The notes under the pieces were generated by a model that was given only the letters and a program-made list of their open reading frames with translations, had not been told where the DNA came from and made no database searches. A DNA stretch of 64,000 nucleotides from an uncultured Bacteroidales bacterium (GTDB lineage Bacteria > Bacteroidota > Bacteroidia > Bacteroidales > JAGOPY01), in contig CAWGKX010000008.1 of NCBI GenBank assembly GCA_963823285.1, positions 19,166 to 83,165 of the forward strand, written 5' to 3'. Position 1 is the first letter of the stretch, and each line of letters begins with the position of its first letter. Positions 33,758-62,442 of the stretch are shown here, piece after piece. Made by a program: the position numbers and the translations under genes.

Positions 33758-33775
33758 TAATTTTAATAACGCTCT

Positions 33776-33808
33776 TCACTTCGTACCCGTATGCCCGAAG
33801 CCGCCCGC
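33776..33808 (-). pseudogene. dut: 3' remnant of dUTPase
   Basis: Minus strand gcg ggc ggc ttc ggg cat acg ggt acg aag tga = AGGFGHTGTK* (dUTPase motif V), at the position where dut normally precedes this TPR gene. Confidence 0.7.
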
Positions 33809-33815
33809 AAAGGTA
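33808..33815 (-). promoter_or_regulatory. Bacteroidota -7 promoter box (TACCTTTG) for the TPR-DUF4292-EnvC operon
   Basis: Matches the TAnnTTTG consensus ~50 bp upstream of the TPR start. Confidence 0.5.
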
Positions 33816-33843
33816 GTTATTTTGTGACAGAATTCATAGAGAA

Positions 33844-33922
33844 GACTGTAAGACTGTAAGACTGTAAGACTGTAGGACTGTAGGACTGTAGGACTGTAGG
33901 ACTGTAGGACTATAGGACGGGA
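33844..33922 (+). repeat. (GACTGTAR)x9 + GACGGGA; left inverted arm of locus A
   Basis: Read directly; reverse-complement array at 36451-36529. Confidence 0.9.
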
Positions 33923-34000
33923 GGACCGTTGGAAAGTTGGACGAGAGAAGGTGAGGATAGCGAAATATTCACTCCGGAGGAGCTTAACATTTGTAGAAAT

Positions 34001-34057
34001 ATAACCCAGAGAGGGTTGGGATAAATAAAAAGCCCATTAGATAATCTAGATATTTAA
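34001..34057 (+). pseudogene. Tyrosine-recombinase C-terminal tail remnant (locus A)
   Basis: Translates ITQRGLG*IKSPLDNLDI*, against ITQKGLGKIKSPLDNLDI* at 61499-61555. Confidence 0.8.
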
Positions 34058-34266
34058 TTTGATTATATTTGATGGGATTAACCAGGGTAATGAGGAAAGA
34101 TTACATTTATAATTACTAGGCAGGATGTATCAGCTATTACACAAAAAGTCAGATTTGGAGATTGCAAATGCAAGACACAATACTACCGGAAATTCGAAGA
34201 GTAAATGCAATAATTCAATTGCTAGATTATAAGGAAAAGCAATACATTTAGCCGAGCGTTATGGAT
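34058..34266 (+). mobile_element. Conserved leader ending in an attI-like core GTTATGGAT (locus A)
   Basis: 200 bp ungapped, 172/200 identical by hand count to 45109-45308; similarity ends at GTT (34258); TATATTTG promoter box at 34064. Confidence 0.75.
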
Positions 34267-34282
34267 TATTGTAAAAGGACAG

Positions 34283-34880
34283 ATGAAACATTGTACATTA
34301 ACCATATTAACAATCATATTCTCAGGTTTTTCAGGATTTAGTCAACTAAACAGACAGATCGACAAGAGCCAAAAAGAGTCAATGAAAGTCCACCATTTGA
34401 GACTGCTAAAGGAATGTCCGATGAGTTGAAAATCCAGAAAAAATATCGACTTCAATACATTGCAGACATTGACAGTATTTTGCAACTATTTTCAAATGAT
34501 ACAATAATTTTGACCGAAAGTTATGATTTCATTTGTTTTGGCTGTCCTTCAGACAATGTTCGAATTTTGGTTGATACGGTTTTGATAAATTACGAAAGAG
34601 ATTTTAAATCAAAAGACTATATCAAGACAATTGAGTTTGTGCCTAAAAAGTCGTTCAATTTAAGAGCTAATCAAAGCGATTGTTTGAGTTGAGAAAAGAG
34701 ATTTGGACAAATAAGGATTGGGATAAAAAACCAGAAAAATATGGAACAGATAAGTGTTTTGATGGGGGACACACGTTCTATACAGTCATAAATCCAAGTG
34801 GAGGCATGATTTCAATGTATATGAGGTGTTGGATTCCAAAAGAAATTAGAAATCAGACAGATGAGAACAACAACCCATAA
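34283..34880 (+). CDS. Cassette-borne hypothetical secreted protein (two frameshifts)
   Basis: MKHCTLTILTIIFSGFSGFSQ signal peptide; pieces 34414-34692 and 34680-34880; the stop lies within ACCCATAAC, complementary (8/9) to GTTATGGAT. Confidence 0.6.
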
Positions 34881-35170
34881 CGGATGTGCAGCGCCCAGCC
34901 CGGAAATTAAAATTTTGCCCGGCCAGGCGGGCGGTAGGTGATCCCTCGCTGCGCTCGGGATGACGCGGTTAGCAGTAGACAATATGAGCGGCGCGGCGCC
35001 ACGGAAGTATTAAGTTCTGACTTTCCTTTGGGCCGCGCCGCTCGGGTATCTCCTCCTACAATCGTCATCCCGAGCGCAGCGAGGGATCTGCTTGTAATTT
35101 GTAATACTAATTCATAACTTTACACTCTCGCACCGCCCGCCTGCCCGGTCAAATAATCCGGCCCAGGATG
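34873..35170 (+). mobile_element. attC-like site containing nested palindromes; 3' core not recognisable
   Basis: AAC-ggatGTGCAGCGCCCAGCCCGG start; perfect 26-bp IR 34940-34965/35063-35088; inner GAGCGGCGCGGC/GCCGCGCCGCTC; outer CAGGCGGGCGGT/ACCGCCCGCCTG. Confidence 0.6.
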
Positions 35171-35187
35171 TATAAAGACAAAATATT

Positions 35188-36097
35188 ATGAGTAAAAAAA
35201 GAACTGGTAAGACTGAATTTGTAAAATGGTTCGGACCAGTGCTTGATGCTTTAAGAGCATTAGGTGGCTCAGCGAAACCCAAGGAAATTACTAAATGGAT
35301 TGCTGAGAAAGGTAATATCCCAGATAATGTTTTGAATGAAAGATACGCAAAATCTGGTGGATTAAAGTTCCCTAACCAAATAGCCTGGGCAAGACAGTAC
35401 TTAGTTTGGGAAGAACTTCTTGCTGCTTCAAAACACGGCGTATGGACTTTGAGTGCTAAAGGTTGGGACACTAAATTAAGCGAAACACAAGTATATGATA
35501 TATTTTTAAAATGGGAAAAATATTTCAAGATTTAAGAGAAGGTAAAGACTCGACTTCCATTGACAATGATGCAGAGAAAATTATACAAATTCAAGAAGAA
35601 GGTGAGCCAGACAGTGACAAAACAGACCTTAAATTCTTTAATAGATGTATTACAAAATTTATCTCCCGCTGGATTTGAACAACTTTGTGGTAGATATTAA
35701 GAGAATATGATTTTGAAGACATAGAAATTACTCAACGTTCACATGATGGTGGTATTGATGGTTACGCAACACTAAAGTTAAATCCGTTTGTAAATATGAG
35801 TGTATTTTTTCAGTGCAAGAGATACAGCGGGACAGTGCCGACAGAAAAAGTTCAAGCATTTATTGGGGTTATGGAAACGAATAAACGAAGTGTTGAAAAG
35901 GGACTCTTTCTTACGACAGGTTCATTTGCCAAAGCTGCATTAGATATAGATAAGAATAACATTAAACTTGAATTAATTGATGGAGACAAATTGTAGAAAT
36001 GTTTGAAAAAGTTGAATTAGGCGTTACACCGAGGACAGTTTATGAACCAGACATGACATTCTTTGAACAGTACAGAGACAAGAAGCCCGGCCGGTGA
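35188..36097 (+). CDS. mrr: Mrr-family (type IV) restriction endonuclease, several frameshifts
   Basis: Mrr_N (LDALRALGGSA...NQIAWAR.YL...GVWTL), SPAGFEQL, SHDGGIDG, FQCKRY, LIDGDKL; stop within CCGGTGAC. Confidence 0.85.
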
Positions 36098-36219
36098 CAA
36101 AGGCTTGCTGCAAGCGGGGCAGCGGGGTTTTGGGACAGTGCAGTTCATTAATCAAACGTTAGTGTATTAGGACAGGAACAACCCCGCGGCATAACAACCG
36201 CGCATCGCCCAGCCCGGGG
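36089..36219 (+). mobile_element. Two truncated attC-like half-sites
   Basis: GCCGGTGAC-AAAGGCTTGCTGCAAGCGGGGC..., then GGCATAAC-AACCGCGCATCGCCCAGCCCGG, matching the half-sites at 34881 and 63340. Confidence 0.55.
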
Positions 36220-36450
36220 TTCTTTAAAATGTTGCATCCGCCAGCTGGTGGACCAAACAAATACAAAATCCAAAATTCAAAAACTCCTCAAATCAGCCAA
36301 TCTCCCAACCATCCAATCCGCAAAGTCCCTTGCTTTTCTCCCCAAAACATCCTACTTTTATCCCACCCAATTCATCCTCAACGATCTTCATAATGATGTA
36401 AGATGAAAACCCTGAAATTCCACTTTTAACTGCCAAAATTCCTTCCGCTT

Positions 36451-36529
36451 TCCCGTCCTACAGTCTTACAGTCCTACAGTCTTACAGTCTTACAGTCTTA
36501 CAGTCTTACAGTCCTACAGTCCTACAGCC
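36451..36529 (-). repeat. TCCCGTC + (YTACAGTC)x9; right inverted arm of locus A
   Basis: Reverse complement of the array at 33844-33922. Confidence 0.9.
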
Positions 36530-36545
36530 TCACTCTCCAGCGGTC

Positions 36546-38036
36546 CTAAAACACTGCCTTAAACTCTCTTCTTTCCTTATAATAAACTATAAGCAGGAAA
36601 ATCATCAAAAGCACGACATTGATTCCCATCAACAGCGCTTTCCGCTCGATGGGCATGAAATAGCTGACCAGGAACAGGCCAACTGACAGCAGGAAATAGA
36701 ACGCGATCCTTCTCCTCTGGTAATTGATCCGGTAGAATTTCTGTCCCCAGTAATAAGACAGGATTACCATCACCACGTACGCCGAAAGATGTCCCCAGGC
36801 AGCGCCGAGATAGCTGTACCGCGGCACCAGCAGCACGTTCATAATTATTGTCACTGCGGCTCCCGACAAGCCTATATAAGCGCCATACCGGGTCATATCG
36901 TTCAGTTTGTACCAGATTGACAGGTTGAAGGTAATGCCCAGAAGCAGGTTGGCCATCAGCACGATCGGCAGGATATAGATCCCCTCCCAGTAAGCCGGCC
37001 CGATGAAATACTTGACGATGTCGGCGAATAAGGTCACCCCGAGAAATATGATCAGGCCGAACAGGATGAAGTACTTCATCACGTCGGCATAGACTTTTTT
37101 AGCATTCTGTTCCCTGACCTGGGCGAAGAAGAAAGGCTCGGCGGCATACCGGAACATCTGGATGAATAGCGTCATCAGCACTGAAAGCTTATAGGCCGCT
37201 CCGTAAATCCCCAGCTGGCCCATGGCGTAGGCCGCGGGTTTCGGCACGCCGGGCGGCACGACAAGCAGATATTTGAAAATGATCTTATCCGCCACTTCGT
37301 TTACCATCCCTGCAAGGCCCACGATAAGCAGCGGAAAAGTATAGACGAGCATCCGGCGCAAAAGTTCCCATTCCACCCTGAACCGGATCCGGAAAATGTC
37401 GGGAAGCAATAATAACAGGACGAGGGCGCTTGAGATCAGGTTGGAGATAAAAGCATAGCCGACGCCGATGGAAGGGTTGTAAACCAGTCTTATCCATGAA
37501 TCCGGGTGATGCGAGTAGATCTTCGGGGCGAGCCATAGAAAGAAAAAGTTCAGTGCGACATTTACCACCACATTGATGATCTTGAGCACCGAAAACCTGA
37601 GCGCCTTGTTCTTATGCCGCAGGTAGGCGAAAGGAATGGCGGTAAATGCATCTAGGGCAACTATGATGCAGAACATCGTAATGTATTCCTTATGGTTGCC
37701 GTATTCTATCAGGCTGGCGATGGGCTGTGCAAATATCACCACTAGCAGGACGAAAAGCGCTGAAGTGGCAAATACGCTGAATAGTGAAGCACTGAAGACT
37801 TTTTTGTAATCCGGCTCTTTTTCGGCAAAGCGGAAGAAGGTCGTTTCCATCCCGTAAGTAAGCAGCACCAGCAGGAAAGCCATATAAGCGTAAAGCTCCG
37901 TGATCACCCCGTATTCGCCGGTGATGAAGACGCGCGTATAGAAAGGCGTAAGGAGGAAATAGTTCAGCAACCTCGGGACGATGGTTCCCATTCCATAAAC
38001 AAGCGTCTGCCCGGCAAGCTTCTTGAGCGGATTCAA
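36546..38036 (-). CDS. Polysaccharide/oligosaccharide flippase (MOP superfamily)
   Basis: LKKLAGQTLVYG, YGMETTFFRF, FRYAAEPFFF; many TM helices. Confidence 0.85.
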   Translation of the reverse strand: MNPLKKLAGQTLVYGMGTIVPRLLNYFLLTPFYTRVFITGEYGVITELYAYMAFLLVLLTYGMETTFFRFAEKEPDYKKVFSASLFSVFATSALFVLLVVIFAQPIASLIEYGNHKEYITMFCIIVALDAFTAIPFAYLRHKNKALRFSVLKIINVVVNVALNFFFLWLAPKIYSHHPDSWIRLVYNPSIGVGYAFISNLISSALVLLLLLPDIFRIRFRVEWELLRRMLVYTFPLLIVGLAGMVNEVADKIIFKYLLVVPPGVPKPAAYAMGQLGIYGAAYKLSVLMTLFIQMFRYAAEPFFFAQVREQNAKKVYADVMKYFILFGLIIFLGVTLFADIVKYFIGPAYWEGIYILPIVLMANLLLGITFNLSIWYKLNDMTRYGAYIGLSGAAVTIIMNVLLVPRYSYLGAAWGHLSAYVVMVILSYYWGQKFYRINYQRRRIAFYFLLSVGLFLVSYFMPIERKALLMGINVVLLMIFLLIVYYKERREFKAVF

Positions 38037-38186
38037 AAGGTTTTTGTTTGCGGGAGTAAAAGTAGAAAAAAAAGTCAGCAGTCAGCAGTCAGTGGCAGAG
38101 CATATCCATAAAATGGAATTTTCTAAAAGACAGGTTGCAACCCTTCTAATAATATTTTGTCTTTAATAAATATAAGAAATTAGAAA

Positions 38187-38840
38187 ATGAGAAAAATAAT
38201 ATTTACATTACTAATAGCTATCTTAATAGGAAGTAAATACAACAATTTATCCGGACAGGATGTTGAAACTAAAAATCATTGGCTTGAAAAACATCCTCTG
38301 GAATTTGCCATAGGTAATTTCTCCGTCGGGATGCCATTTTCGAAAATATTTATAAACAAATTCTATCCGGCGATAACGGTAGGCACAGAGTTTTATTACC
38401 GGAATAAAACATATTCGCAAATATACCAGACAGCGCATATTGGAGGTTATTATACTGAATACAGCACCTCCGCATTATTTGTGAATACCGAAATAGGATA
38501 CAGATATACATTCGGTTTTGGATTATTTGCCGATGTAAATTTGGGTGTTGGGTATTCTCATCTTTTCAGACCCAATGCCATTTATAAATTAAACAGCAAC
38601 GGAGAATACGAACAAGTAAGTGATTGGGGAAAACCATCATTAATGGCTGACTATTCATTGTCCATCGGCTATGACTTCACAAAACATTTGCGAAAACCCG
38701 TAAGTGTTTTTCTGCGTTATGGAAATTATGTACAATTGTTTTATAATGATCCCGATATACCCGTTTTGCCCCAGAACAGTTTTCAGATAGGAACAAGATT
38801 TTTAATCAATCAGAAACAGAAATCAAATGAAACTAAATAG
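38187..38840 (+). CDS. Hypothetical outer-membrane beta-barrel-like protein
   Basis: Signal peptide, alternating aromatic beta-strand patterns; AT-rich. Confidence 0.55.
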   Translation: MRKIIFTLLIAILIGSKYNNLSGQDVETKNHWLEKHPLEFAIGNFSVGMPFSKIFINKFYPAITVGTEFYYRNKTYSQIYQTAHIGGYYTEYSTSALFVNTEIGYRYTFGFGLFADVNLGVGYSHLFRPNAIYKLNSNGEYEQVSDWGKPSLMADYSLSIGYDFTKHLRKPVSVFLRYGNYVQLFYNDPDIPVLPQNSFQIGTRFLINQKQKSNETK

Positions 38841-40026
38841 ACTATTTATTGTCATTTCAGCACTTGTATTTTTTGCTTTATTCTCATGCAGGAAGGATGG
38901 CTTGAATGAACCTGTTTCATCAGATTGCAGCCTGCCATTTGCAGACAGCACGGCAAACAATCCGAAGAACTTGGCTTACCAGGCATTGCTTGACAAATAT
39001 GTAAAGGAAGGCCTGCCCGGTTTAGTCGTTTTAATAAGAACTCCAAATGAAGGTTTGTGGATTGGGTCATCAGGTTATGCAAGAATTGAAGACAAAACAC
39101 CGATGAAAAAATGCAATATCGTTTATTCAGCCAGTATCGGGAAAACATATTGTGCTGTGGCAATAATGAAACTGGTTGAAGAAGGCAGATTAAATCTTGA
39201 TGATAAAATGAATAAGTATTTACCGGCAGATATATGTGATAATATACCTAATGGCAATACTGCTTCTATCAGAATGCTGCTTGGACATACTTCAGGGATA
39301 CCAAATTTTGACGATGACACACAATTCATTGCAGACGTTTTAAACGATCCATTTTCAATTACGACAGATGATTTAATTAAATATGAATATTGTAAAAAAG
39401 CATTGTTCCAACCGGGGGAAGGTTATGAATATTCATCAACAGGATATGAATTGCTGGCAAAAATCATTGATAAAGTCACAGGCGAAAACCACAGTAAATA
39501 TTACACATCCCATATCTTTCAGCCACTTGGATTAAACAACACTTATTATAAAAATGAAGTTGGTTTTCCCAAACCCGATGGACTGGTCAACTGTTACTTT
39601 GACAGGCTAGGTGACGGAAAAATTGATAATGTATCGGATGTTAATAATCATCTGACACAGGTATTGACAGGGTCGGATGGTATCATGGCTTCAGTTTACG
39701 ACTATTATTTATTTATTGAAGCATTGATGAAAGGGAATCTGGTAAGTTCTCAATCACTGCAACAGATGACTATCTGGCACGATACTCATTCTTCTCACCC
39801 TGAAATCAAATATGGCCTTGGTTTGTTTCAGATTGAAACCAAATATGGATTTAAAGTAGGTCATGATGGGGATGCAATGGGAGCTGGCACTGATATGTAT
39901 TATTTCCCTGAACATGATATTACTATTGTAACAGCTACCGACCTTGGAACGTTTCTCGACACAGATCTGGCGCTGAAATATAACAACGACTTTCAAGACG
40001 ATTTGCTGGATGCCGTGTTTGAATAA
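38827..40026 (+). CDS. Serine hydrolase lipoprotein, beta-lactamase class C / D-peptidase superfamily
   Basis: Lipobox LFSC, SIGK (SxxK), LLGHTSG, YSSTGY, HDG. Confidence 0.85.
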   Translation: MKLNRLFIVISALVFFALFSCRKDGLNEPVSSDCSLPFADSTANNPKNLAYQALLDKYVKEGLPGLVVLIRTPNEGLWIGSSGYARIEDKTPMKKCNIVYSASIGKTYCAVAIMKLVEEGRLNLDDKMNKYLPADICDNIPNGNTASIRMLLGHTSGIPNFDDDTQFIADVLNDPFSITTDDLIKYEYCKKALFQPGEGYEYSSTGYELLAKIIDKVTGENHSKYYTSHIFQPLGLNNTYYKNEVGFPKPDGLVNCYFDRLGDGKIDNVSDVNNHLTQVLTGSDGIMASVYDYYLFIEALMKGNLVSSQSLQQMTIWHDTHSSHPEIKYGLGLFQIETKYGFKVGHDGDAMGAGTDMYYFPEHDITIVTATDLGTFLDTDLALKYNNDFQDDLLDAVFE

Positions 40027-40167
40027 AAAACATAATACCAATTCAAACATGCCGCGCCGTGTTTTAATACATTGGTTTAAATAATATTGTGCCGTACATT
40101 TTTTGCAGCTGATCTGAACATTCCTGGCGTCAATATGTTAATTGAATAACATTCAGATATGCCATAG

Positions 40168-41637
40168 TTGCTTAAAATGATGTGTCACTTTATGCAAAAT
40201 AAGTCTGATCGGGTCAGAATTAGACGTGCATTTTATTCTGCCTTAATATTCCTTTATATAATTTTTGGCCAGGGGCTGTTCGCACAACCAAAGACCTGGA
40301 CCATGAAAGAATGCATCGATTATGCGCTGGAAAAGAATATCCAGCTCAACCAGACGCAGCTCACCAGCAAGCTGAACGACCTCAGCCTTGCGCAGGCCAG
40401 AGCGAACCTTTACCCGAACCTTGCACTCACGGATTATTATTCGCTGAATTTCGGCTATTCGACCAATACTTTCACTTACCAGTCCGGCCAGCAGGATATT
40501 TCGATCAACAATATGGCACTGACCAGCAATTTCACCATATTCAACGGTTTCGAGCTCAGGAACACGGTTAAGCAGTCGAAATACATTTATGATGCGGGCA
40601 ATTTCGATATCGAAAAAGCAAAGAACGATATCCTGCTGGCCGTCGTCGCGGATTACCTGCAGATCCTCTATTCTTACAAAGCGCTGGAAATTGCCCGGAG
40701 CCAGGTGAGCAACACCGCGACCCAGGCCGAAAGGACCAGGAAATTCGTGGACGCCGGCAAACTGGCCGAGGGAAACCTTTTACAGATACAATCCCAGCTA
40801 TCGACCGACAAAGCTTCCGCCGTCAGTGCCGAAAACCAGGTCCAGCTTGCAAAAGTGACGCTGATGCAGATGATGGAACTTCCCATCGTCGAGAATTTCG
40901 AGATTGACAGTTCGGGCATCGTTGAACCGTCGCTCGAAGCGGTCACCTCATCCGCTGATATTTACCGGGTTTCGGAAGGCATCATGCCCGAGATCAGGAG
41001 CGCCGAGCTTAAAACCCAGGCTGCCGAGGCCGGCATCAGGATCGCAAACGCTTCGTACCTGCCCAGGCTCACCCTGGGACTGACCCTTAAATCGGGCTAT
41101 TCCAGCGGGAGCCGTCTTTATTCGACCATGCTCGTCCCGCAAAAAATAGGTTATCTTCAAAATGATCCCGCGACACTTGTTTACGGCGACGTGCCCATTA
41201 CATCAAAACATAATTATCCTTTTACAAGGCAGCTTAAAGACAATTTCGGCCAGGTCATCAACCTGAACCTGACGGTTCCGATCTACAGCAACAGCCAGGC
41301 CAGGTATGGATCCGAAAGGGCTAAGATCGACTATATGAATTCACAGCTCTCCGAGCAGGCAACCAGGGACCAGTTGCGGAAACTGGTGGAGCAGGCCTAT
41401 ACCGATCTTACCGCGGCCATCAAAAATTATGTGGCGGCGCAGGAAATCCTGGTTTCCGAAGAACGGACCTACCGCGACATGGAAAGAAAATTCAACCTCG
41501 GGCTGGCCACCGCCACGGATTTCCTGATCGAAAAGGACAATTATGTAAAGGCACAGTTGTCGGTCGTACAGTCAAGATTCACCTATATTTTCAAATCCAA
41601 AATCGTAGACTTCTACCTGGGTAAAAATTTAAACTAG
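40168..41637 (+). CDS. TolC-family outer-membrane efflux protein (start uncertain)
   Basis: WTMKECIDYALEKN, two OEP repeats, DFYLG. Confidence 0.9.
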   Translation: MLKMMCHFMQNKSDRVRIRRAFYSALIFLYIIFGQGLFAQPKTWTMKECIDYALEKNIQLNQTQLTSKLNDLSLAQARANLYPNLALTDYYSLNFGYSTNTFTYQSGQQDISINNMALTSNFTIFNGFELRNTVKQSKYIYDAGNFDIEKAKNDILLAVVADYLQILYSYKALEIARSQVSNTATQAERTRKFVDAGKLAEGNLLQIQSQLSTDKASAVSAENQVQLAKVTLMQMMELPIVENFEIDSSGIVEPSLEAVTSSADIYRVSEGIMPEIRSAELKTQAAEAGIRIANASYLPRLTLGLTLKSGYSSGSRLYSTMLVPQKIGYLQNDPATLVYGDVPITSKHNYPFTRQLKDNFGQVINLNLTVPIYSNSQARYGSERAKIDYMNSQLSEQATRDQLRKLVEQAYTDLTAAIKNYVAAQEILVSEERTYRDMERKFNLGLATATDFLIEKDNYVKAQLSVVQSRFTYIFKSKIVDFYLGKNLN

Positions 41638-41645
41638 ACTGATCG

Positions 41646-42872
41646 ATGAAAAGAAAGACGGTCATCATTATTTCCATTATTATCCTCGCCATATGCGGCA
41701 GTGATCATTTATTTTTCTCCTGGCAGGAAAAAACAACGCTTACGCCTGGAAAACAGTGCCTGTCGCAAAAGGGAAGATCATCATCCTGGTAAAATCGACG
41801 GGGACCATTGATGCGGATACGACCGTGGATGTCGGGACCCAGGTCACCGGGACCATATGGAAGCTTTATGCCGATTATAATTCCGTGGTGAAAATCGGGA
41901 GATATCATCGCGGTACTTGATACGACTTTTCTTTCCGCATCGAGGATAGATGCACAGGCCACCCTGGAGAGGGCCCAGGCCCAGCTTGACCAGGCCCAGC
42001 GCGATTACGACCGGAATAAGATATTGCTGGATGAAAAAGTCGTCGCGCAATCGGATTATGAAACTACGCTCACCGCGCTTGCAGTTGCAAAAGCGGCCGT
42101 CACTTCGGCCAGGGCAGAGCTTAACCACGCCAAAGTCAACCTGCAGTATGCCGTGATCCGCGCCCCCGTCAACGGCGTTGTTATTTCCAGGAATGTGGAG
42201 CTCGGGCAGACCGTTGTTTCGAGCTTTAATACCCCTACCCTCTTTTCCATCGCGAACGACCTCACGCGGATGCAGGTCCAGGCCAGCGTCGATGAAGCGG
42301 ATATCGGCCAGGTTCAGCCCGGCCAGAAGGTCTCATTCACAGTCGACGCTTACCCGGACGAAATATTCAAAGGCGTGATATCCCAGGTAAGGCTCCAGCC
42401 CGTCATGGTCCAGAATGTCGTGAACTATGTCGTGATCATCAATGTCCCCAATCCTGAAATGAAGCTCAAGCCTGGACTGACGGCCAACATCAGCATCAAT
42501 GTCAATGAGCATGACGATATCCTGAAAGTCCCGTCAAACGCCATTTCCTTCAATCCGCCCGACGATTACCTGAAAAAAATGAGCAACATACCTGATTCGG
42601 TCAGAGCCGGCCTGAAAAAATCAGGCACGCAGACTATGGATGAAAATACGGGTGAATTTATAAAACAGAAAACCGCTTATGTCTGGGTAAAAAAAGGACA
42701 GGAAATTTATCCCGTGAAAGTTACGACAGGGCTGTCGGACGGCAATTTCACCGAAATTTCGGGCAATATCAATGAAGGCGAAGAAGTCGTGACAGGACTG
42801 GGCACGGCGGGAAAATCCGCCAAGGCTTCCAGGAGCCCGTTCATGCCGCAGTTCCCGGGTGGAAAAAAATAA
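41646..42872 (+). CDS. MacA-like efflux periplasmic adaptor (5' frameshifts)
   Basis: ATG 41646 MKRKTVIII; VDVGTQVTG; IRAPVNGVVISRNV; VDEADIGQV. Confidence 0.85.
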
Positions 42873-42881
42873 TGATACCTG

Positions 42882-43640
42882 ATGGCGGAACAGATCATAT
42901 CGGTTACTGACCTGGTAAAAGTCTATCACATGGGCGACGTGGAAGTTCATGCTTTGAGGGGAATATCGCTTTCAATCAACAAGGGGGAGTACATGGCCAT
43001 TATGGGGGCAAGCGGATCCGGAAAATCGACCTTTATGAACATCCTGGGATGCCTTGACCGCCCGACAAGGGGTGATTATTTCCTGGACGGAATCAATGTG
43101 AATACTTACAACAAGAACCAGCTTGCGGAACTGAGAGGCAAGAAGATCGGCTTTATTTTCCAGTCATTTAATATCCTCGCCCGGACCTCCGCACTCGACA
43201 ATGTGGAGCTGCCCCTTTTGTATAACCGGAATGTCAACAGCAAAGAAAGAAAAGAAAGGGCGTACAATGCGCTGAAATCCGTTGGCCTCGCCGACCGGGC
43301 GCGTTCAATGCCCAACCAGTTGTCGGGAGGCCAGCAGCAAAGGATTGCCATTGCCCGCGCCCTGGTAAATGAACCCGTCGTCATCCTGGCCGATGAACCT
43401 ACCGGCAACCTTGACACAAGGACCAGCTACGAGATCATGGAAATTTTCCAGTTGCTGAACGAGAACGGAAGCACCATTGTCATGGTCACCCATGAAGCCG
43501 ATATCGCCCTGTTTGCGCGAAGCAACGTCATATTCCGGGATGGAAGGATCATAGCCAACAACCCGGTAAAGGCGCGCAAAATTGCATCGGAAGAATTGCC
43601 TAATTTACCGGACATAGAAGAGGACCCCCAAAAACAATGA
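42882..43640 (+). CDS. ABC ATP-binding protein (MacB/LolD type)
   Basis: [31 protein letters not shown]. Confidence 0.95.
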
Positions 43641-44857
43641 GAATCTCCAACCTGATAAAAGTCGCCCTGCTTTCCCTCAGCAAAAATAAAATGAGGACTT
43701 TCCTGACCATGCTGGGCATCATCATCGGCGTGGCTTCCGTGATTGCCATGCTGGCTATCGGGCAGGGATCGAAGCATTCGGTGCAGGAATCCATTTCCAG
43801 CCTGGGAACCAACAGCATCCTGATCTTCCCGGGTTCGTCGAACCAGGGAGGCGTCAGGGGCGGAGCAGGATCCACCTCCACGCTGACCGTAGACGATGCC
43901 GATGCCATCAGGGAAAGATGCAACCTGGTCGATCATGTATCTCCCGTCGTGCAGCGCAGGGTGCAGGTGATCTCCGGCTCGCAGAACTGGAATACGCTTA
44001 TCGTAGGCGGCCTTGACGACTACTTCTATATACGCAACCTCGAGCTGGAATCCGGGAACGAGTTCACGGAAACCGATATGAGGGCTGCGGCCAAAGTTTG
44101 CGTTGTGGGCCAGACAGTCATTACAAGCCTTTTCGGGGAAGGCGCCAATCCTATCGGGCAAACCGTCAGGATCAACCAGATCCCTTTCCAGATCATCGGG
44201 ACGCTTGTGAAAAAGGGCCAGAATACATTCGGGCAGGACCAGGATGATATCATCATCGCCCCCTTTTCCACGGTACTTAAGAGACTGGTCAATACGCCCA
44301 ATATCAACATGATCATTGTATCGGCCGTCAGCCAGGACGACATTGATGCGGCAACCGCGCAGATCAGGCCGTTACTGAGGGAGATGCACAAACTGCTTCC
44401 CAATGACGAAGATGATTTCACCATACGCACGCAGGCTGATATAGCGAATATTTTCGGAAGCATTTCCAAGGTCATGACTGTTCTGCTTGCCGCCATAGCC
44501 AGCATTTCCATCGTCGTTGGCGGGATCGGGATCATGAACATCATGCTGGTATCCGTCACCGAGCGGACACGCGAGATCGGCATCCGCATGGCAGTGGGCG
44601 CCAAAGGCCGCCACGTCCTGATGCAGTTCATGATCGAGGCCATATTTATCGGGATACTCGGGGGGATCCTGGGCATCATTCTCGGTGTGATCGTTTCTGT
44701 AGTAGTGGCAGACGCGGCAGGATGGCCCATCTCCATCACTTTCTTTTCAATTTTTCTTTCCTCTGTCTTCTCCGTGGCAGTGGGAATATTTTTCGGCTGG
44801 TACCCTGCGCGCAAAGCGGCAAGCCTGGATCCGATCGATGCATTGCGGTACGAGTGA
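43637..44857 (+). CDS. MacB/FtsX-type ABC permease
   Basis: LTMLGIIIGV, SVTERTREIGIR, PARKAASLDPIDALRYE. Confidence 0.95.
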   Translation: MRISNLIKVALLSLSKNKMRTFLTMLGIIIGVASVIAMLAIGQGSKHSVQESISSLGTNSILIFPGSSNQGGVRGGAGSTSTLTVDDADAIRERCNLVDHVSPVVQRRVQVISGSQNWNTLIVGGLDDYFYIRNLELESGNEFTETDMRAAAKVCVVGQTVITSLFGEGANPIGQTVRINQIPFQIIGTLVKKGQNTFGQDQDDIIIAPFSTVLKRLVNTPNINMIIVSAVSQDDIDAATAQIRPLLREMHKLLPNDEDDFTIRTQADIANIFGSISKVMTVLLAAIASISIVVGGIGIMNIMLVSVTERTREIGIRMAVGAKGRHVLMQFMIEAIFIGILGGILGIILGVIVSVVVADAAGWPISITFFSIFLSSVFSVAVGIFFGWYPARKAASLDPIDALRYE

Positions 44858-45045
44858 AGCAGGGAAGCTTAGAGGCAGTTCAAAGTTCAAAGTTCAAAGT
44901 GCAAAGTGAAAGAACGCAGGGGAGCAGGGAAGCAGGGGAAGCGGGGAAGAGGGGACAAGGAGACTGGGAGACTGGGAGACCGCCGACCGCTGACCGTCGA
45001 CCGCCGACCGTCGACCGCTGACCGCCGACCGCCGACCGCTGACCG
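44857..45045. repeat. Composite array of AAAGTTC, GGAAGCRG, GGAGACTG and GACCGCC/GACCGYY repeats
   Basis: Read directly; abuts the integrase tail of locus B. Confidence 0.9.
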
Positions 45046-45051
45046 GGGTTT

Positions 45052-45108
45052 ATCACTCAAAACAGGGCCTTGAAAAATAATACTCCTGTTGATAATCCTG
45101 ATATTTAA
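45052..45108 (+). pseudogene. Degenerate tyrosine-recombinase C-terminal tail (locus B)
   Basis: Translates ITQNRALKNNTPVDNPDI*; same length and register as 34001-34057. Confidence 0.65.
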
Positions 45109-45317
45109 ATTGATTATATTTGAAAGGATTAACCAAGGCCATGAGGAAAGATTACATTTATAATTACCGGGCAGGAAGTATCAGCTATTACATATAAAGT
45201 CGGATATGAAGATTGTATATGCAAGACACAATACTATCGGAAATTCGAAGAGTAAATGCAATTATTCAATCCCTGGATTATAAGTAAATGGAATACCATT
45301 AGCCGTGGGTTGTAGGC
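45109..45317 (+). mobile_element. Conserved leader ending in an attI-like core GTTGTAGGC (locus B)
   Basis: Paralog of 34058-34257; GTT at 45309, exactly 200 bp after the integrase stop, as in locus A. Confidence 0.75.
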
Positions 45318-45338
45318 AAAATTAAAAAAAGTCTCACA

Positions 45339-45926
45339 ATGAAATATTTGATAGCTATTTTATTGATTCTGTTTTCTTTATCAATTGTGAAAGCTCAAAC
45401 AGATGAAAGTATAATAAATGAATTATTCTTTGATTTATTTGACCCTTTATCTTTTAATTTACTGGATAACCAGATTGATACATTGCTAATTAGCTCAACT
45501 ATTTATAAAACATACTTTGATTACGATTCTGTTAAATTTGAGAGTGCGACTGGTCTAAAAGTTCCAATGGGAATAATTTCAGACTGGAAGAAAAATATGG
45601 AATCTGACAATTATAGCTCTTCTTGGAATGAAAAGGAGCTAAATAAAATTGACACAATTTTTACAGGAAAGGACACCGTTTTTGCAAAGAAACCATTTGT
45701 TAAGTGCTTATCTCAGAGTGAAGAAAAATCACTGTTTGAAAAAACAAAAACAAGACAGCCAATTTATTCAATAAGCAAAATACTGTTTGATGATTCAAGG
45801 GAAAATGCCATATTTGATTTCTTATATACTCCTTGGCCTGGCGATGTAAGTGGATATAAGATTTTTATAAAAAAGGTATTTGGAAAATGGGTGATTATTA
45901 CGAGATTTAATTATTTTATGACTTAA
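45339..45926 (+). CDS. Cassette-borne hypothetical secreted protein
   Basis: Signal peptide, AT-rich, bounded by GTTGTAGGC and GCACACAAC (7/9 complementary). Confidence 0.7.
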   Translation: MKYLIAILLILFSLSIVKAQTDESIINELFFDLFDPLSFNLLDNQIDTLLISSTIYKTYFDYDSVKFESATGLKVPMGIISDWKKNMESDNYSSSWNEKELNKIDTIFTGKDTVFAKKPFVKCLSQSEEKSLFEKTKTRQPIYSISKILFDDSRENAIFDFLYTPWPGDVSGYKIFIKKVFGKWVIITRFNYFMT

Positions 45927-45934
45927 AAAATTCT

Positions 45935-46067
45935 GCACACAACATCATGTATAAAATATTGCCGGTTCATCGGTTAATTAAAGGTTGTTTCCCGCATTAA
46001 GTTTATTGTATCTTGACAGGGAATCGCACCACAATCGACTACTTTTAATACATGTATCGTTGTAGTC
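45935..46067 (+). mobile_element. Complete attC-like site (133 bp)
   Basis: ACAAC...GTTGT cores; CATGTATAAAA pairs with TTTTAATACATG with one extra base, like an attC extrahelical base. Confidence 0.75.
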
Positions 46068-46086
46068 AATTGAAATACAAACAAAT

Positions 46087-46589
46087 ATGATAACTGAAAA
46101 AGCTCCTAATGTTAAAAAACTAGTGGATTACAAAATTCCATTTGTGTTAAGAGATTTAGAAATGGGCTTTAATTCAGCATCCCGAGAAAGAAGCACTTTA
46201 GAGAAATTAAGATACTGGCAGATAATTATTACTTCTGCACTAATTACTTTTTTAATCGGAAATAAAGAAGTTTCAGTGTATTTCTCATTGATTATTCTAA
46301 TCATGAATTTGGTAATTTTTTATATAGAGTTAGGCATTAAATGGCAAATCTTTCTAATAGGTAAAAAGACCGGCGAGCAAGAGAGGCTATTGGAAACAGA
46401 ATCTGATGAAAAATTCGAAGAAAACATAATCAAATGGAAATTTGGAACAGGAATATCAAACCCTTATTATTATAAGACATAAAAGTTATTTTTAAAGAAT
46501 TAATATGGAAACGAAGTATCATACCTTGGTGTTTATTATTAATAACTCTCTCAATTCTACCAATAATATTACAAGTTTTTATAGTTTAA
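46087..46589 (+). CDS. Cassette-borne hypothetical membrane protein (frameshift ~46470)
   Basis: Two TM helices in 46087-46482; a further hydrophobic segment ends at TAA 46589 in another frame. Confidence 0.55.
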
Positions 46590-46593
46590 TCAA

Positions 46594-46920
46594 CTGACCA
46601 CATTCGCGCAGCACCCAGGCCGGCCAAGGGAATTACACGATTGTTCCGCCAGCTGGCGGACGGGCGCCAAAAGATCCCTCTCCGCCAGCCGGCGGATTCG
46701 GGATGACGCAAAATCGAGAGATCAATGAGGCGGCGCGGCACACCTTAAAAAAGTAACAATGGGGTGCCGCGCCGCTCCTGTTTTTATCAGCCAGGCACGT
46801 CATCCCGATCCGCCGAAGGCGGAGAGGGATCTGTTTGCAAAATGTTTTGTAAATTTATAACTTTACTCTCTGTGCCTGGCCGGCCAAAATCCCGCGCCAG
46901 GTCGCTGCGCTCGAGCCTTT
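46594..46920 (+). mobile_element. Degenerate attC-like site with nested REP-like palindromes
   Basis: GCGCAGCACCC...GTCGCTGCGC outer arms; AGATCCCTC...CGGGATGACG / CGTCATCCCG...GAGGGATCT; inner GCGGCGCGGCAC/GTGCCGCGCCGC; homologous to 34873-35170. Confidence 0.65.
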
Positions 46921-47014: not shown

Positions 47015-47269
47015 ATGTTAACAACAACAATTTCCGAATTCCGAAAAGATATCAAACGGTATTTGGACAATGTGACTCGAAACTTTGAAACTCTGATTAT
47101 TAATCGTGGAAAAGACACAGGTGTCGTAATCATGTCTTTGGAAGAATATAATTCCCTGAAGGCAACCTATCATGAATTATCATCCAAGATTAATGAACAA
47201 AGGTTGGATTCAGCTATTGAGAAACTGAAAAATGGATCCTCTTTCCAAAAAGGCCTGATTGAGCCATGA
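47015..47269 (+). CDS. yefM: Phd/YefM antitoxin
   Basis: TTISEFRK...LIINR...VVIMSLEEYNSL; overlaps the toxin start. Confidence 0.9.
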   Translation: MLTTTISEFRKDIKRYLDNVTRNFETLIINRGKDTGVVIMSLEEYNSLKATYHELSSKINEQRLDSAIEKLKNGSSFQKGLIEP

Positions 47270-47523
47270 AACTTATATTTGTGGATGAGTCCTGGGAAGA
47301 TTATCTGTATTGGCAAAAAACCGACAGAAAGATATTGGATAGAATTAATAATTTGGTAAAAGACATTTCTCGAAACCCTTACACTGGCCTTGGAAAACCA
47401 GAGTCATTAAAATATAAGTACCAAGGATATTGGTCCCGTAGAATAACAGAGGAACATCGATTAATTTACAGAGTTTATAATGACGAGATTCATATTGCTA
47501 AATGCCGTTTCCATTACGATTAG
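47266..47523 (+). CDS. yoeB: Txe/YoeB toxin
   Basis: WEDYLYWQ, GLGKPESLK, WSRRITEEHRLIY, CRFHY. Confidence 0.95.
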   Translation: MKLIFVDESWEDYLYWQKTDRKILDRINNLVKDISRNPYTGLGKPESLKYKYQGYWSRRITEEHRLIYRVYNDEIHIAKCRFHYD

Positions 47524-47538
47524 ACACAAATCAAAAAC

Positions 47539-47709
47539 GGCTGGTAACGATCGCAGCGCCCTGCCCGGGAGAAAAAAGTCGTCAGTCATTAGTCGTTAGT
47601 CTTTAGTCATTAGTCTTTGATTTTGAGTTAATTTTAGACTGCCGGCTAATGACCAGCGACTAACGACTAAAAGGAACGGGCGGGGGCGCTGCAATCGGCC
47701 GTTACGGGG
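47539..47709 (+). mobile_element. Complete attC-like site with a heptamer-repeat hairpin in its loop
   Basis: GTAAC-GATCGCAGCGCCCTGCCCG ... CGGGCGGGGGCGCTGCAATC-GGCC-GTTAC; internal TTAGTCN repeats pair with NGACTAA-type repeats. Confidence 0.8.
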
Positions 47710-47763
47710 CATTTTAAAAGGAATGAAATATTAATTTTGTCCAAATAAATAACCAAACCGGAT

Positions 47764-48365
47764 ATGAAAATACTATTTACAATTTTAATAGGATTATTTC
47801 TATCAATCACAGGTTACTCACAGACTTGTCTGCACGAAGGAATTATATTTACAACACAATATCAAATCGACAGGTTTCAGATAATTTATCCAAACTGTAC
47901 TGAGATGAAGGCAGCGTAGCAATCAGTGGAGAAGATATTACCAACTTAAACGGATTAAGCGTTTTAACTTCAATTGGGGAATACCTTATAATAGAAAATA
48001 ACAAAACACTTACCAGCCTGTCAGGATTAGAAAGTCTGGTATCAATCGGGGGAGACCTTAAAATTGGAACTTATTCCGGAAATCCAGTCCTGACATGTGG
48101 AGTCGGATTTGAAGATCCGGGAATACCGGAAAGCCTGATCTGCGTTTATCCTAATCCATCCTCTGCACAAATCACTATTAAAACCGAAATCCCGTTAAAT
48201 CAAGGGTTACTTCGAATTTTCAGCATGAGTGGTCTTGAACTTAATCATTACCATGTCACTACACCTAAAATGGTCATTGATATCGGTTATTTGCCAGCAG
48301 GAGTTTATTTTCTTCAGCTAATAACTGATAATCAAGTTACAGTAAAGAAAATTATCAAAAAATAA
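47764..48365 (+). CDS. Cassette-borne L-domain/LRR-like protein with T9SS CTD (frameshift ~47905; absent from the ORF track)
   Basis: MKILFTILIGLFLSITGYSQTCL..., then ITNLNGLSVLTSIG / LTSLSGLESLVSIGG, VYPNPSS, LPAGVYFL, KKIIKK*; followed by GCCGTATAC, an imperfect complement of GTTACGG. Confidence 0.7.
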
Positions 48366-48445
48366 CGCATGCTGCCGTATACGCAAAGTCCGGCCAAAAA
48401 CGTGCTTTGTGCCTGAGCGTCAGCTGGCATCTAATTTCTTCTATT

Positions 48446-50003: not shown

Positions 50004-50488
50004 AGGGCAAAGGGAAAAGTTGAAGTTATTCAGGGCAAAGTTATTAACAAGACGGGTATTTTTTTAGAATTTACGGATAAACTATAAAATAATCTATTTA
50101 TGGAAGGGCCAGTTTACAAAAAAACAATTGAGTTTTCAATTAGTCTGATCAGCATTTATAAAGAGTTGCTAAGGAACCAGGAGTTTATTATTTCCAGACA
50201 ACTTTTTAGGGCCGGGACCAGCATTGGTGCAAATGTCCAGGAAGCCACTTCCGCTCAAAGCAGGAGGGATTTTATTAATAAAATGTCTATTGCTGCTAAA
50301 GAAGCCAAAGAGACACGATACTGGCTGATAATATTATCAGAAGGAAAAATTATTAATTATGATTACTCCAAGCAAATGAATGATATTGAAGAGATAATTA
50401 AAATCCTCAGCAAAATAATAATAACGGCAAAGAACAACTTAAACACTAATAAACTTTAACTTTTCCCTTTGCCCTTTGCCCTTTGAAC
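49998..50488. mobile_element. Four-helix-bundle gene bracketed by inverted heptamer-based repeats
   Basis: 49998-50027 GTTCAAAGGGCAAAGGGAAAAGTTGAAGTT vs 50452-50488 AACTTTAACTTTTCCCTTTGCCCTTTGCCCTTTGAAC. Confidence 0.6.
50100..50459 (+). CDS. Four-helix-bundle protein (TIGR02436 / 23S-IVP family)
   Basis: QLFRAGTSIGANVQEA, SRRDFINK..IA.KEA.ET.YWL. Confidence 0.9.
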   Translation: MEGPVYKKTIEFSISLISIYKELLRNQEFIISRQLFRAGTSIGANVQEATSAQSRRDFINKMSIAAKEAKETRYWLIILSEGKIINYDYSKQMNDIEEIIKILSKIIITAKNNLNTNKL

Positions 50489-60659: not shown

Positions 60660-61234
60660 TTAACCACATAGAAACATAGGACACATAGATTCACATAGGA
60701 TTAAAGCATGAAATATCTTCTATGTGTTTCTATGTGTTCTATGTGGTGAAAAATAAACAAATAGAAAAATAGGTTATGACTCAGAAATATCTGGATGGCC
60801 TGACTTATCAGGTCATTGGCGCAGCCATTGAAGTTCATAAAGAACTGGGGCCTGGATTGTTGGAAAGCGTTTATGAAAAATGCATGGTTCATCTTTTGAA
60901 AGAAAGGGGGCTTAAAGTTTCTTTCCAGCAGAGGGTGCCAGTAATTTTTCATAGTGTTTATCTAGAATGCGACCTGAGATATGATATCATGGTTGAAGAA
61001 TCCATAATTGTCGAGATAAAGGCAGTGGATATGCTATTGCCGATTCATTTGGCGCAATTACTGACCTATCTGAAACTGACCAATAAACCCAAAGGAATAT
61101 TGTTGAATTTCAATTGTTTTAATCTATTTAAAGAAGGCCAGAAAACACTTGTAACTGAGCTCTTTTCAAAACTACCGGAATGCTAATAGTATTTTCTATG
61201 TGTTCTTATGTGTCCTATGTTTCTATGTGTTTAA
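60660..61234. mobile_element. GxxExxY gene bracketed by ~41-bp inverted CACATAG/CTATGTG repeats
   Basis: 60660-60700 is the near-perfect reverse complement of 61194-61234; an extra CTATGTG arm lies at ~60718-60750. Confidence 0.65.
60776..61186 (+). CDS. GxxExxY protein (PD-(D/E)XK-like)
   Basis: LGPGLLESVYE, RYDIMVE, VEIKAV, AQLLTYL, GILLNF. Confidence 0.92.
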   Translation: MTQKYLDGLTYQVIGAAIEVHKELGPGLLESVYEKCMVHLLKERGLKVSFQQRVPVIFHSVYLECDLRYDIMVEESIIVEIKAVDMLLPIHLAQLLTYLKLTNKPKGILLNFNCFNLFKEGQKTLVTELFSKLPEC

Positions 61235-61243
61235 TTTTCACCC

Positions 61244-61555
61244 TACAGGAATTTTGATCCTCAGAAGCTGACCGATGAGCAGATCAGGGAATACCTGTTA
61301 TACCTGATTGAGCATCGCGACATATCGCTGTCTTACCAGAATCAATCGATCAATGCCATCAAGTTTTACTACGAGCAGGTATTGGGGCGGCCGGTGCGGA
61401 CGTATTACATCCAGCGGCCGAAGCGGGGGACGGATATCAGGTATATACAGACTTTGTTGGGGCACGCAAGTTCAAGGACAACAGAGATTTACACTCATAT
61501 CACGCAAAAAGGCCTTGGGAAGATCAAGAGCCCGCTGGATAATTTGGACATATAA
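61244..61555 (+). pseudogene. Integron-integrase-like tyrosine recombinase, 5'-truncated and internally deleted in frame (locus C)
   Basis: YRNFDPQKLTDEQIREYLLYLIEHRDISLSYQNQSINAIKFYYEQVLGRPVRTYYIQRPKR|GTDIRYIQTLLGHASSRTTEIYTHITQKGLGKIKSPLDNLDI*; SAM-like domain fused to box II; no start codon; R and HxxR core missing. Confidence 0.85.
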
Positions 61556-61621: not shown

Positions 61622-61861
61622 ATGAAAACACTTTCCCTTAAATTAGATGACAATATATTCCAGGAGACCGAGCAGGTGACCGGTTACCTTAAAAAATCCA
61701 GGAACCGTTATATTAATGAGGCATTGGAATATTACAACAAAATACAGCGGCGGAAAATGCTTTCAGCACAATTGGAAAGGGAATCTAAGCTTGTTGCCGG
61801 AGAATCCTTGGATGTATTGAATGAATTTGAACAATTGGAAGATGAAACCGAAGCAATTTGA
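61622..61861 (+). CDS. Ribbon-helix-helix antitoxin (putative)
   Basis: MKTLSLKLDD...SRNRYINEAL; overlaps the toxin start. Confidence 0.75.
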   Translation: MKTLSLKLDDNIFQETEQVTGYLKKSRNRYINEALEYYNKIQRRKMLSAQLERESKLVAGESLDVLNEFEQLEDETEAI

Positions 61862-62186
61862 AATATGGATTGCGGATCTGAATCCGCGGATTGGAACTGA
61901 GCCGGGAAAGGTGCGGCCTGTCGTTATTGTGCAGACCGATTTGCTGAACAAACATCATCCATCGACAGTAATTTGTCCATTAACGACGAAGGTTCAGCCG
62001 GGTAGCGAGATATTGCGGGTACATTTAGCTAAGGGCGTCTGCGGACTGGATGAAGGCTGTGATGTTATGATCGACCAGGTAAGGGCGATTGACAATGCGA
62101 GGCTGGTAAATAAAGTGGGAAAGTTGCCGCTTAAAGCAGTTAATAAAATAAAATTCAATTTAGGCGTCATATTTGACCTGGAATGA
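61842..62186 (+). CDS. PemK/MazF-family toxin
   Basis: EIWIADLNP..GTEPGKVRPVVIVQ, ICPLTT, DQVRAID..RL. Confidence 0.92.
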   Translation: MKPKQFEIWIADLNPRIGTEPGKVRPVVIVQTDLLNKHHPSTVICPLTTKVQPGSEILRVHLAKGVCGLDEGCDVMIDQVRAIDNARLVNKVGKLPLKAVNKIKFNLGVIFDLE

Positions 62187-62442
62187 TGTATATTTATGCA
62201 ACCAAACGATTGACCTGACCTAATAGAATCGAACATGGCAAAGCTGGCTTTTCTAATTGCATTTACAGGTAAAAAAATGACAACTAATCCCAATGTTGTT
62301 GCAAAACCGATTTATTATTGCAACAACAATGTGTTAACCCATCATTTTTTGTCAGCTAACAGCAATAAAACCATCCTGATAAGTCAAACATAACATCAAT
62401 GTGTTTGCACAAACGTTATAGGCTATTAATTATTGAAGTCAT

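Follow-up and report, generated by a model that had tools for sequence, protein, structure and literature searches.

Duplicated leaders in a Bacteroidales genome as probable front ends of integron-like cassette arrays

This analysis concerns a 200-base leader that occurs twice in a stretch of 64,000 nucleotides (the whole of which is called the window below) from an uncultured Bacteroidales bacterium of the JAGOPY01 lineage (assembly GCA_963823285.1, contig CAWGKX010000008.1, positions 19,166 to 83,165 of the forward strand). The assembly has 15 contigs and 3.8 Mb and is 80% complete. At both places, named locus A and locus B, an integrase gene survives upstream only as a remnant of its last 59 bases (19 codons, 345-363, with the stop); the leader follows, and directly after it stands a GTT (34258-34260 at A, 45309-45311 at B) and then an array of gene cassettes. 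A third locus, C, has its own integrase relic, leader and array. The sole intact integrase gene found in the assembly lies at C15:937238-936147, encodes 363 amino acids and points to a toxin-antitoxin-like pair, a related leader, a GTT and a hairpin-bearing array over about 15 kb. Coordinates of the features in the window are given in Table 1.

Recounting of the two copies (34058-34257 and 45109-45308, offset 11051) gave 172 identical positions out of 200 without any gap, the same figure as in the first-pass annotation of this DNA. That annotation also placed the start of each copy at an integrase stop; the TAA stop is present in both, the whole integrase is not, and the likeness starts about 20 bases earlier, at 34038/45089 (17/20 identical), inside the stub. 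Similarity is lost after the GTT as had been stated, with 15 identities in the next 40 bases. The leader is better conserved between A and B than the adjoining stub (172/200 against 41/59, p = 0.006), which fits selection on the promoter and leader, or gene conversion. A genome-wide search with the 200-mer found no further full-length copy in the assembly and one partial match, of 98 bases at 70%, behind the intact integrase on C15. Leaders of the genus are homologous to one another but differ by indels (52% column identity over 14 aligned leaders); the A/B, C15 and C types are subtypes of this family. The locus C leader had been described as unrelated and as a possible second platform type; its upstream part indeed has no similarity to A or B (z about 0), but its end carries the same site motif, and the leader has homologues among those of the relative G001 (z 28); it is therefore taken as a leader subtype of the same system. 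In wider searches, BLAST of copy B against 60 relatives gave short weak matches in four, two of which (L003, L005) are not leaders, and neither of two exact-pattern scans of metagenome contigs gave a match (0 in each). In the four public runs described below no sequence covered the leader, an outcome that carries no weight. Phylum-wide, the upstream parts of the leaders match in 9 of 1225 pairs, and A and B match none.

The first-pass annotation had allowed that the length and conservation of the copies could reflect a structured leader RNA. A structured leader RNA or small RNA would suit a long, gap-free repeat, and the predicted 5' leader of about 190 bases is long beside the median of 24 bases in Flavobacterium psychrophilum (PMC9723704). 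As RNA, however, the copies fold no better than shuffles (z -0.58 and 0.00), the predicted folds of A and B differ, and 0 of 40 pairs are compensatory in the alignment fold, which has two sequences only. No Rfam match at gathering scores was obtained across the window, and the scarcity of matches between upstream parts in the phylum, together with the large indels among the genus leaders, speaks against an RNA as well, so that this explanation is regarded as extremely improbable. A leader peptide was also considered and rejected: although a frame of 35 codons can be read without a stop in both copies, copy B lacks a start codon, and by eye most of the substitutions would change the amino acid. 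The locus C leader holds an 11-pair hairpin at 62294-62328 (z -4.5), in which the homologous G001 leaders (L095, L128) carry two double, compensatory changes; unlike the A/B leader, it thus looks like a kept structure, and we raise the question whether it could be a terminator or operator of the toxin-antitoxin pair upstream.

By the logic of integrons, an integrated circular cassette is expected to start with bases complementary to its closing bases. The 10 bases from the GTT were compared with every downstream AAC, and the matches were ranked, at 14 sites of the genus and family. The best AAC is the one that opens the first hairpin at locus A (9/10), locus B (8/10), locus C (10/10) and the C15 site (7/10). 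In relatives the score is 10/10 at L102, L091, L002 and L124 and 7/10 at L090, L007 and L128, and at five of the 14 loci there is no such match in the available DNA (contig ends, short loci, an intron). For the phylum, 80 integrase loci of the GTDB collection yielded 76 site picks, 56 of which score at least 9 bits and 32 of these have at least 400 bases downstream; the complement is 9/10 or better at 25 of the 32, against 30 of 453 control GTTs inside integrase genes (6.6%). A homologue of cassette B1, about 91% identical, was found in contigs of four public runs from three studies. In all four the alignment begins at 45309, the G of the GTT. In two, those whose loose ends are listed, it stops at 45944 and is preceded by GC-rich foreign sequence that is unlike the leader and is read as the end of another hairpin site. 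Tabulation of what follows the GTT gave 17 unrelated sequences for 17 genus and family sites, with no BLAST match shared within 500 bases and hence no shared homology past the GTT; the outcome that the first-pass annotation had named as refuting its proposal was thus not seen. Because of the complementary ends, the start of B1 in other runs and the unrelated followers, the GTT is a cassette boundary. The first-pass proposal of a primary recombination site is supported by the first two of these lines; that the cut at the GTT is made by this integrase is what we infer from sequence.

Three further observations concern these boundaries. In other hosts (runs X5 and X6) the same cassette gene has another hairpin body behind it, from 45944 onward, which suggests that attC-like sites are exchanged or replaced behind the AAC. 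At L040, L047 and L061 (Flavobacteriales) the complement lies within about 20 bases of the GTT, making a very short unit, after which come repeated genes with similar starts. At G000:C14:950597 (-) a second attI-like site lies within an array, and the unit behind it, about 50 bases long, contains no gene and has complementary ends.

Conservation across the phylum covers about 30 bases: a left box, a right box (consensus TGCGTWTA), 7 bases and the GTT, situated at a median of 167 bases past the integrase stop in 51 loci. The boxes form an inverted repeat, which was tested on 51 sites, three of them identical to seed loci. They pair at 3.33 of 6 inner positions, against 2.39 when partners are swapped between genomes (z 7.7), and slid registers give z of 2.0 or less. 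One interpretation is that the inverted repeat before the GTT is extruded as a single-strand hairpin, so that attI would be a folded substrate like attC and be read by the HARP-like domain of the integrase described below. The arms do covary, with both sides changing at inner positions, the loops vary, a few stems reach 10-12 pairs, and at locus B a perfect stem of 5 pairs has arisen again, in a new register. However, the length is narrow (18, 20 or 21 bases in 34/51), G-T and A-C mismatches are equal in number (27 vs 27) and favour neither strand, the cores of A, B and C fold no better than shuffles, and two boxes under one changing enzyme would also covary. Given the narrow length and the equal mismatches, two inverted boxes on double-stranded DNA fit better than a strand-specific hairpin, and the hairpin is considered unlikely.

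Class 1 attI sites have accessory repeats upstream. Here the left box recurs in direct orientation 32 bases farther upstream, both at A and B and in several relatives; by eye, the best copy is at 32-33 bases in 7 of 14 genus leaders, and a copy anywhere upstream occurs in 21 of 51 phylum leaders against 7.1 in shuffles. When all GTTR sites of the genome were ranked by the 51-site profile, C14:955012 (17.1), the C15 site (14.9) and locus C (13.2) took the top three places. The locus A score of 6.0 is reached by 2 of the 738 GTTR sites of the window.

The box TAnnTTTG is the sigma-A -7 box of Bacteroidota (PMC9723704), and TATATTTG stands 6 bases past the TAA in both copies, at 34064 and 45115, as the first-pass annotation had reported. 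A TAnnTTTG within 60 bases of the integrase stop is present in 31 of 79 loci, against 3.5 in shuffled sequences and 2 on the other strand; AT-matched gene ends of this genome have it in 34 of 179 (p = 0.001). It occurs in 9 of 17 genus and family leaders, and five of the eight boxless ones have other genes between integrase and leader. In the phylum counts of TTG, the -33 box, a spacer of 19-21 bases is seen in 12. The element TATATTTG is a candidate for the cassette promoter, a role regarded as likely.

The integrase on C15 (P0001) has the catalytic residues R219, K244, H308, R311, H334 and Y343, which are invariant in 91 homologues, and it passes the archaeal XerA model. Its catalytic domain does not contain the IntI-specific insertion (I2 region): the segment between its catalytic patches has about 43 residues fewer than that of VchIntIA (residues 264-290 correspond to 180-249 of 2a3v), and the patch spacing is 32 residues in all 85 of the 91 homologues that fit the pattern. 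The insertion of integron integrases is described as not fully conserved and as essential for integron function (PMC8138268). A whole-protein fold search returned Xer and IntI recombinases alike, with no separation. Residues 1-70 form a separate domain (predicted local distance difference test, pLDDT, 90.5), which was found by its own profile at 78 of 80 loci in a set biased to full-length matches and which matches HARP at E of 0.05 or less in 58 of 91 homologues; with modest confidence it is modelled as HARP-like. Domains of the HARP/UvsW type bind forked DNA. The linker between this domain and the core (L008:11148-12239 (-), codons 70-87) is built of the 8-base tandem repeats of the genome, and its length varies in frame among relatives (copies of G001, G005, G008 and G009; frames of 401-422 residues).

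It could be argued that a canonical IntI integron or a host Xer recombinase built the arrays and that the adjoining integrase is a bystander, the more so as the best NCBIfam and structure matches include archaeal XerA. A tblastn search of the genome finds one intact copy of the integrase family, its relics and otherwise Xer-like genes only, and the site keeps its median distance from the stop codon of this very family over the 51 loci; the bystander reading is therefore very improbable.

Arrays A, B and C, and a fourth headed by C14:955012, which has no integrase relic and a first-cassette complement of 10/10 (by eye), are without a working integrase, so that the genome has one complete platform and at least four sites that lack an integrase. 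Three leaders occur in the relative G006 (96% complete), in which this query found no intact integrase. The corresponding regions of relatives, next to the flippase and cstA-like genes, were searched in 9 genomes (17 regions, two of them cut short by contig ends), and none showed a leader, an integrase or a hairpin motif; the blanks for hairpins weigh little because the attC pattern search misses diverged sites. In G001 a C-type platform lies on a different contig. These two findings point to lineage-specific insertions. A tentative extension, about which we are more doubtful than confident, is a distributed integron, in which a single HARP-fused recombinase lacking the IntI insertion might serve scattered satellite sites in trans, each with its own promoter, the primary site being a covarying inverted repeat and possibly a single-strand hairpin.

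The 200-base copies are, with high probability, paralogous front ends of an integron-like array, in which G/TT (the slash marking the cut) is likely the equivalent of attI, the box is a predicted promoter and the integrases have been deleted. In the proposed mechanism the C15 tyrosine recombinase would bind the GTT box and a box 8-15 bases upstream of it, helped by the inverted copy of the upstream box and by the further copy 32 bases upstream, most likely on double-stranded DNA. The site would recombine with the folded attC-like end of a circular cassette, with the cut at G/TT, and the HARP-like N-terminal domain might do the reading of folded DNA in place of the missing IntI insertion. A transcript from TATATTTG, about 190 bases before the GTT, would run into the cassettes. 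The platform would have been copied to new intergenic places, the integrase gene then being deleted and the promoter and leader kept. Locus A may still accept cassettes in trans; the core of locus B looks decayed, and this has likely frozen its array.

A number of points weigh against this interpretation. All cassettes may have been captured before the integrase was lost, and gene conversion could also account for the leader being better conserved than the stub. Conservation within the repeat is lowest in the final 20 bases before the GTT (14/20 against 158/180, Fisher p = 0.04). No TTG is found 19-21 bases before the -7 box in A or B, so that of the Pc-like promoter proposed in the first-pass annotation the enriched -7 box stands and the -33 box at its usual spacing does not; moreover, the -7 box is absent within 230 bases in 8 of the 17 genus and family leaders. 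The phylum site profile was seeded on the 14 genus and family sites, and ahead of the inverted-repeat tests 5 of its 56 picks were removed by hand because they were probably wrong. The complement falls below 9/10 at 7 of the 32 phylum loci and is just 7 at L090, L007, L128 and the C15 site. Five of the 51 reference sites score lower than locus A, and locus B, at -7.8, lies below all 51. As for the enzyme, the integron integrase model TIGR02249 gives 219 bits with a cut-off of 265, the match of residues 1-70 to Pfam HARP (PF07443) is weak (17.5 bits, cut-off 25, E 0.003), and the fold matches of this domain are middling: T4 UvsW Z 5.9 (root-mean-square deviation 2.2, 57 aligned), XPB Z 5.1 and SMARCAL1 HARP Z 3.3.

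The 200 bases could alternatively be a passive duplicate of a dead platform, alike through age or gene conversion and not through present function, which bears on present activity and not on the identity of the sequence. The substitutions are evenly spread, the integrases are deleted, several cassette genes are frameshifted and the B core is decayed. Set against this are the conservation of the leader above that of the stub, the intact putative promoter box in both copies and the open frames of B1, B2 and the toxin-antitoxin pair. Either true mutations or assembly errors could underlie the frameshifts; a housekeeping efflux gene close by is likewise split. We consider a dead platform possible, though rather doubtful.

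Table 1. Integrase relics, leaders, attI-like sites and cassettes at loci A, B and C of the window
Feature	Position	Strand	Remarks
8-base tandem repeats	33833..33933	+	resemble integrase linker codons 70-87; possibly part of deleted locus A gene
Locus A integrase stub	33999..34057	+	codons 345-363 and stop, internal stop; 83% to intact C15 gene
Locus A leader, copy 1	34058..34257	+	172/200 to copy 2; homologous to genus leaders
TATATTTG, sigma-A -7 box, candidate cassette promoter	34064..34071	+	sequence; enrichment counts
Upstream direct copy of left box	34202..34209	+	candidate accessory integrase site, 32 bases before left box
Locus A attI-like core	34234..34260	+	worn inverted repeat 34234-34250, 7-base spacer, G/TT 34258-34260; score 6.0
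Cassette A1, frameshifted gene	34259..34881	+	closing AAC 34879-34881; 9/10 complement
attC-like hairpin A1	34875..35180	+	palindromic insert 34939-35092; right end clipped
Cassette A2: frameshifted Mrr-type restriction nuclease gene and attC-like remains	35188..36217	+	Pfam Mrr_N, Mrr_cat
Locus B integrase stub, degenerate	45051..45108	+	codons 346-363 and stop; 73% to intact gene
Locus B leader, copy 2	45109..45308	+	TATATTTG at 45115-45122; upstream box 45253-45260
Locus B attI-like core, apparently decayed	45285..45311	+	G/TT 45309-45311; score -7.8
Cassette B1	45310..45943	+	gene 45339-45926, 195 aa, no Pfam/NCBIfam match; 8/10 complement; homologues start 45309
attC-like site B1, AT-rich type	45937..46066	+	AAC 45941-45943, GTT 46059-46061; ends pair in predicted fold, overall z about 0
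Cassette B2 and decayed attC-like site with palindromic insert	46060..46915	+	gene 46087-46482
YefM/YoeB toxin-antitoxin cassette	47015..47523	+	
attC-like hairpin B3, dominant GC-rich type of the genome	47542..47707	+	AAC 47546-47548, GTT 47701-47703; fold; more copies on C14, C15
Cassette B4, frameshifted gene	47702..48366	+	homologous to second cassette of L002
Locus C integrase relic	61244..61555	+	codons 121-180 (93% to intact gene) fused to codons 324-363 (79%)
Antitoxin-like and PemK/MazF toxin genes, between relic and leader	61622..62186	+	Pfam PemK_toxin; same pair at L128, L002
Locus C leader with 11-pair hairpin and attI-like core	62187..62417	+	G/TT 62415-62417; score 13.2, third in genome
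Cassette C1	62416..63340	+	298-aa protein, T9SS sorting domain; 10/10 complement

The cassettes are closed by attC-like hairpins with complementary AAC/GTT ends; their loop geometry is non-canonical, and site B1 folds weakly. Canonical attC sites have a loop geometry of 5 x 6, whereas the hairpins here have a 4 x 6 or 2 x 4 loop beside the AAC/GTT. A palindromic element of 150-230 bases is recurrently inserted in the hairpin loops (34939-35092, 46600-46830 and the C5, C14 and C15 arrays). At L096 2755-3885 (G011) what appears to be a reverse transcriptase of a group II intron stands behind the first short cassette, inserted at an attC-like AAC.

Around the platforms, a dUTPase gene lies between the flippase and tetratricopeptide repeat (TPR) genes in G003 and G006, is absent here (33758-36545) and has left a trace in G005 and G008. 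The 8-base repeats at 33833-33933 are of a kind common elsewhere in the genome, and their link to the deleted integrase is thus uncertain. GxxExxY and four-helix-bundle genes, flanked by short tandem repeats, are found at 60776-61186 and 50100-50459, the GxxExxY gene occupying the place of the lost 5' half of the locus C integrase. Differing toxin-antitoxin-like pairs lie between the integrase stop and the leader, outside the array, at L009, L070, L089, L090, L093, L095, L128 and in the window at 61622-62186. In several Cytophagales loci (L038, L055, L057, L067, L072; by eye) a gene resembling that of single-stranded DNA-binding protein (SSB) lies between the integrase stop and the site, which is of interest for single-strand recombination.

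The system has much in common with canonical integrons (class 1; VchIntIA, PDB 2a3v), namely an IntI-related tyrosine recombinase (219 bits with TIGR02249; 2a3v matched in two stretches), cassettes whose complementary ends lie at G/TT and AAC, hairpin sites that separate the genes, cassettes with toxin-antitoxin and defence genes, and a candidate promoter box upstream of the insertion point. It differs from them in the shorter segment between the catalytic patches, in the extra HARP-like domain, in the position of the site past the integrase stop, in the several attI-like sites per genome and in the hairpin loops given above; as the integrase lacks the IntI insertion, the system is not classed as a canonical integron. 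Its layout, with the integrase transcribed toward the attI-like site and the cassettes, is that of Treponema-type integrons, which share the order of integrase, about 200 bases, an R box starting with GTT and co-oriented cassettes (PMC3607928). By analogy, the system would work like an integron of the Treponema layout (PMC3607928, PMC4889954); those are described with IntI and one attI each, and the comparison is by description only. Clusters of attC sites lacking integrases (CALINs; PMC9024848) resemble A, B, C and C14:955012 as arrays without a working integrase gene, but the present arrays retain an attI-like site, a predicted promoter box and, often, a stub as well, and the same genome encodes an intact enzyme. 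In Riemerella anatipestifer, of the same phylum, homology-independent integration has been described for a unit made of a 27-base 5' flank, a gene and a 140-base attC-like 3' hairpin (PMC13148043); B1, with 29 bases from GTT to ATG and a 130-base site, is similar. That paper leaves the mechanism unexplained and identifies no recombinase or attI, and the link is offered as a lead only, by description and not by sequence comparison. IntegronFinder 2.0 reported almost no complete integrons in Bacteroidetes, the one named being in Salinibacter (PMC9024848), and a review counts Bacteroidota among the integron-bearing phyla (PMC8618304). No description of this integrase family or its site was found in the open literature; subscription papers and supplements could hold one. 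The family itself is common: by estimate, about 1500 stretches of the GTDB collection match the integrase peptide patterns (591 of 599 scanned were confirmed relatives).

The duplication alone is of modest interest, and its value lies in exposing the site and the satellite architecture, in which satellite sites are possibly served in trans. The defined site, with its inverted repeat, 7 bases and G/TT, is the missing substrate for assaying an integrase that has no segment of the kind held essential for attC recombination, and the site profile finds the heads of arrays even after the enzyme is lost. It may also have a bearing on homology-independent gene capture in Riemerella (PMC13148043).

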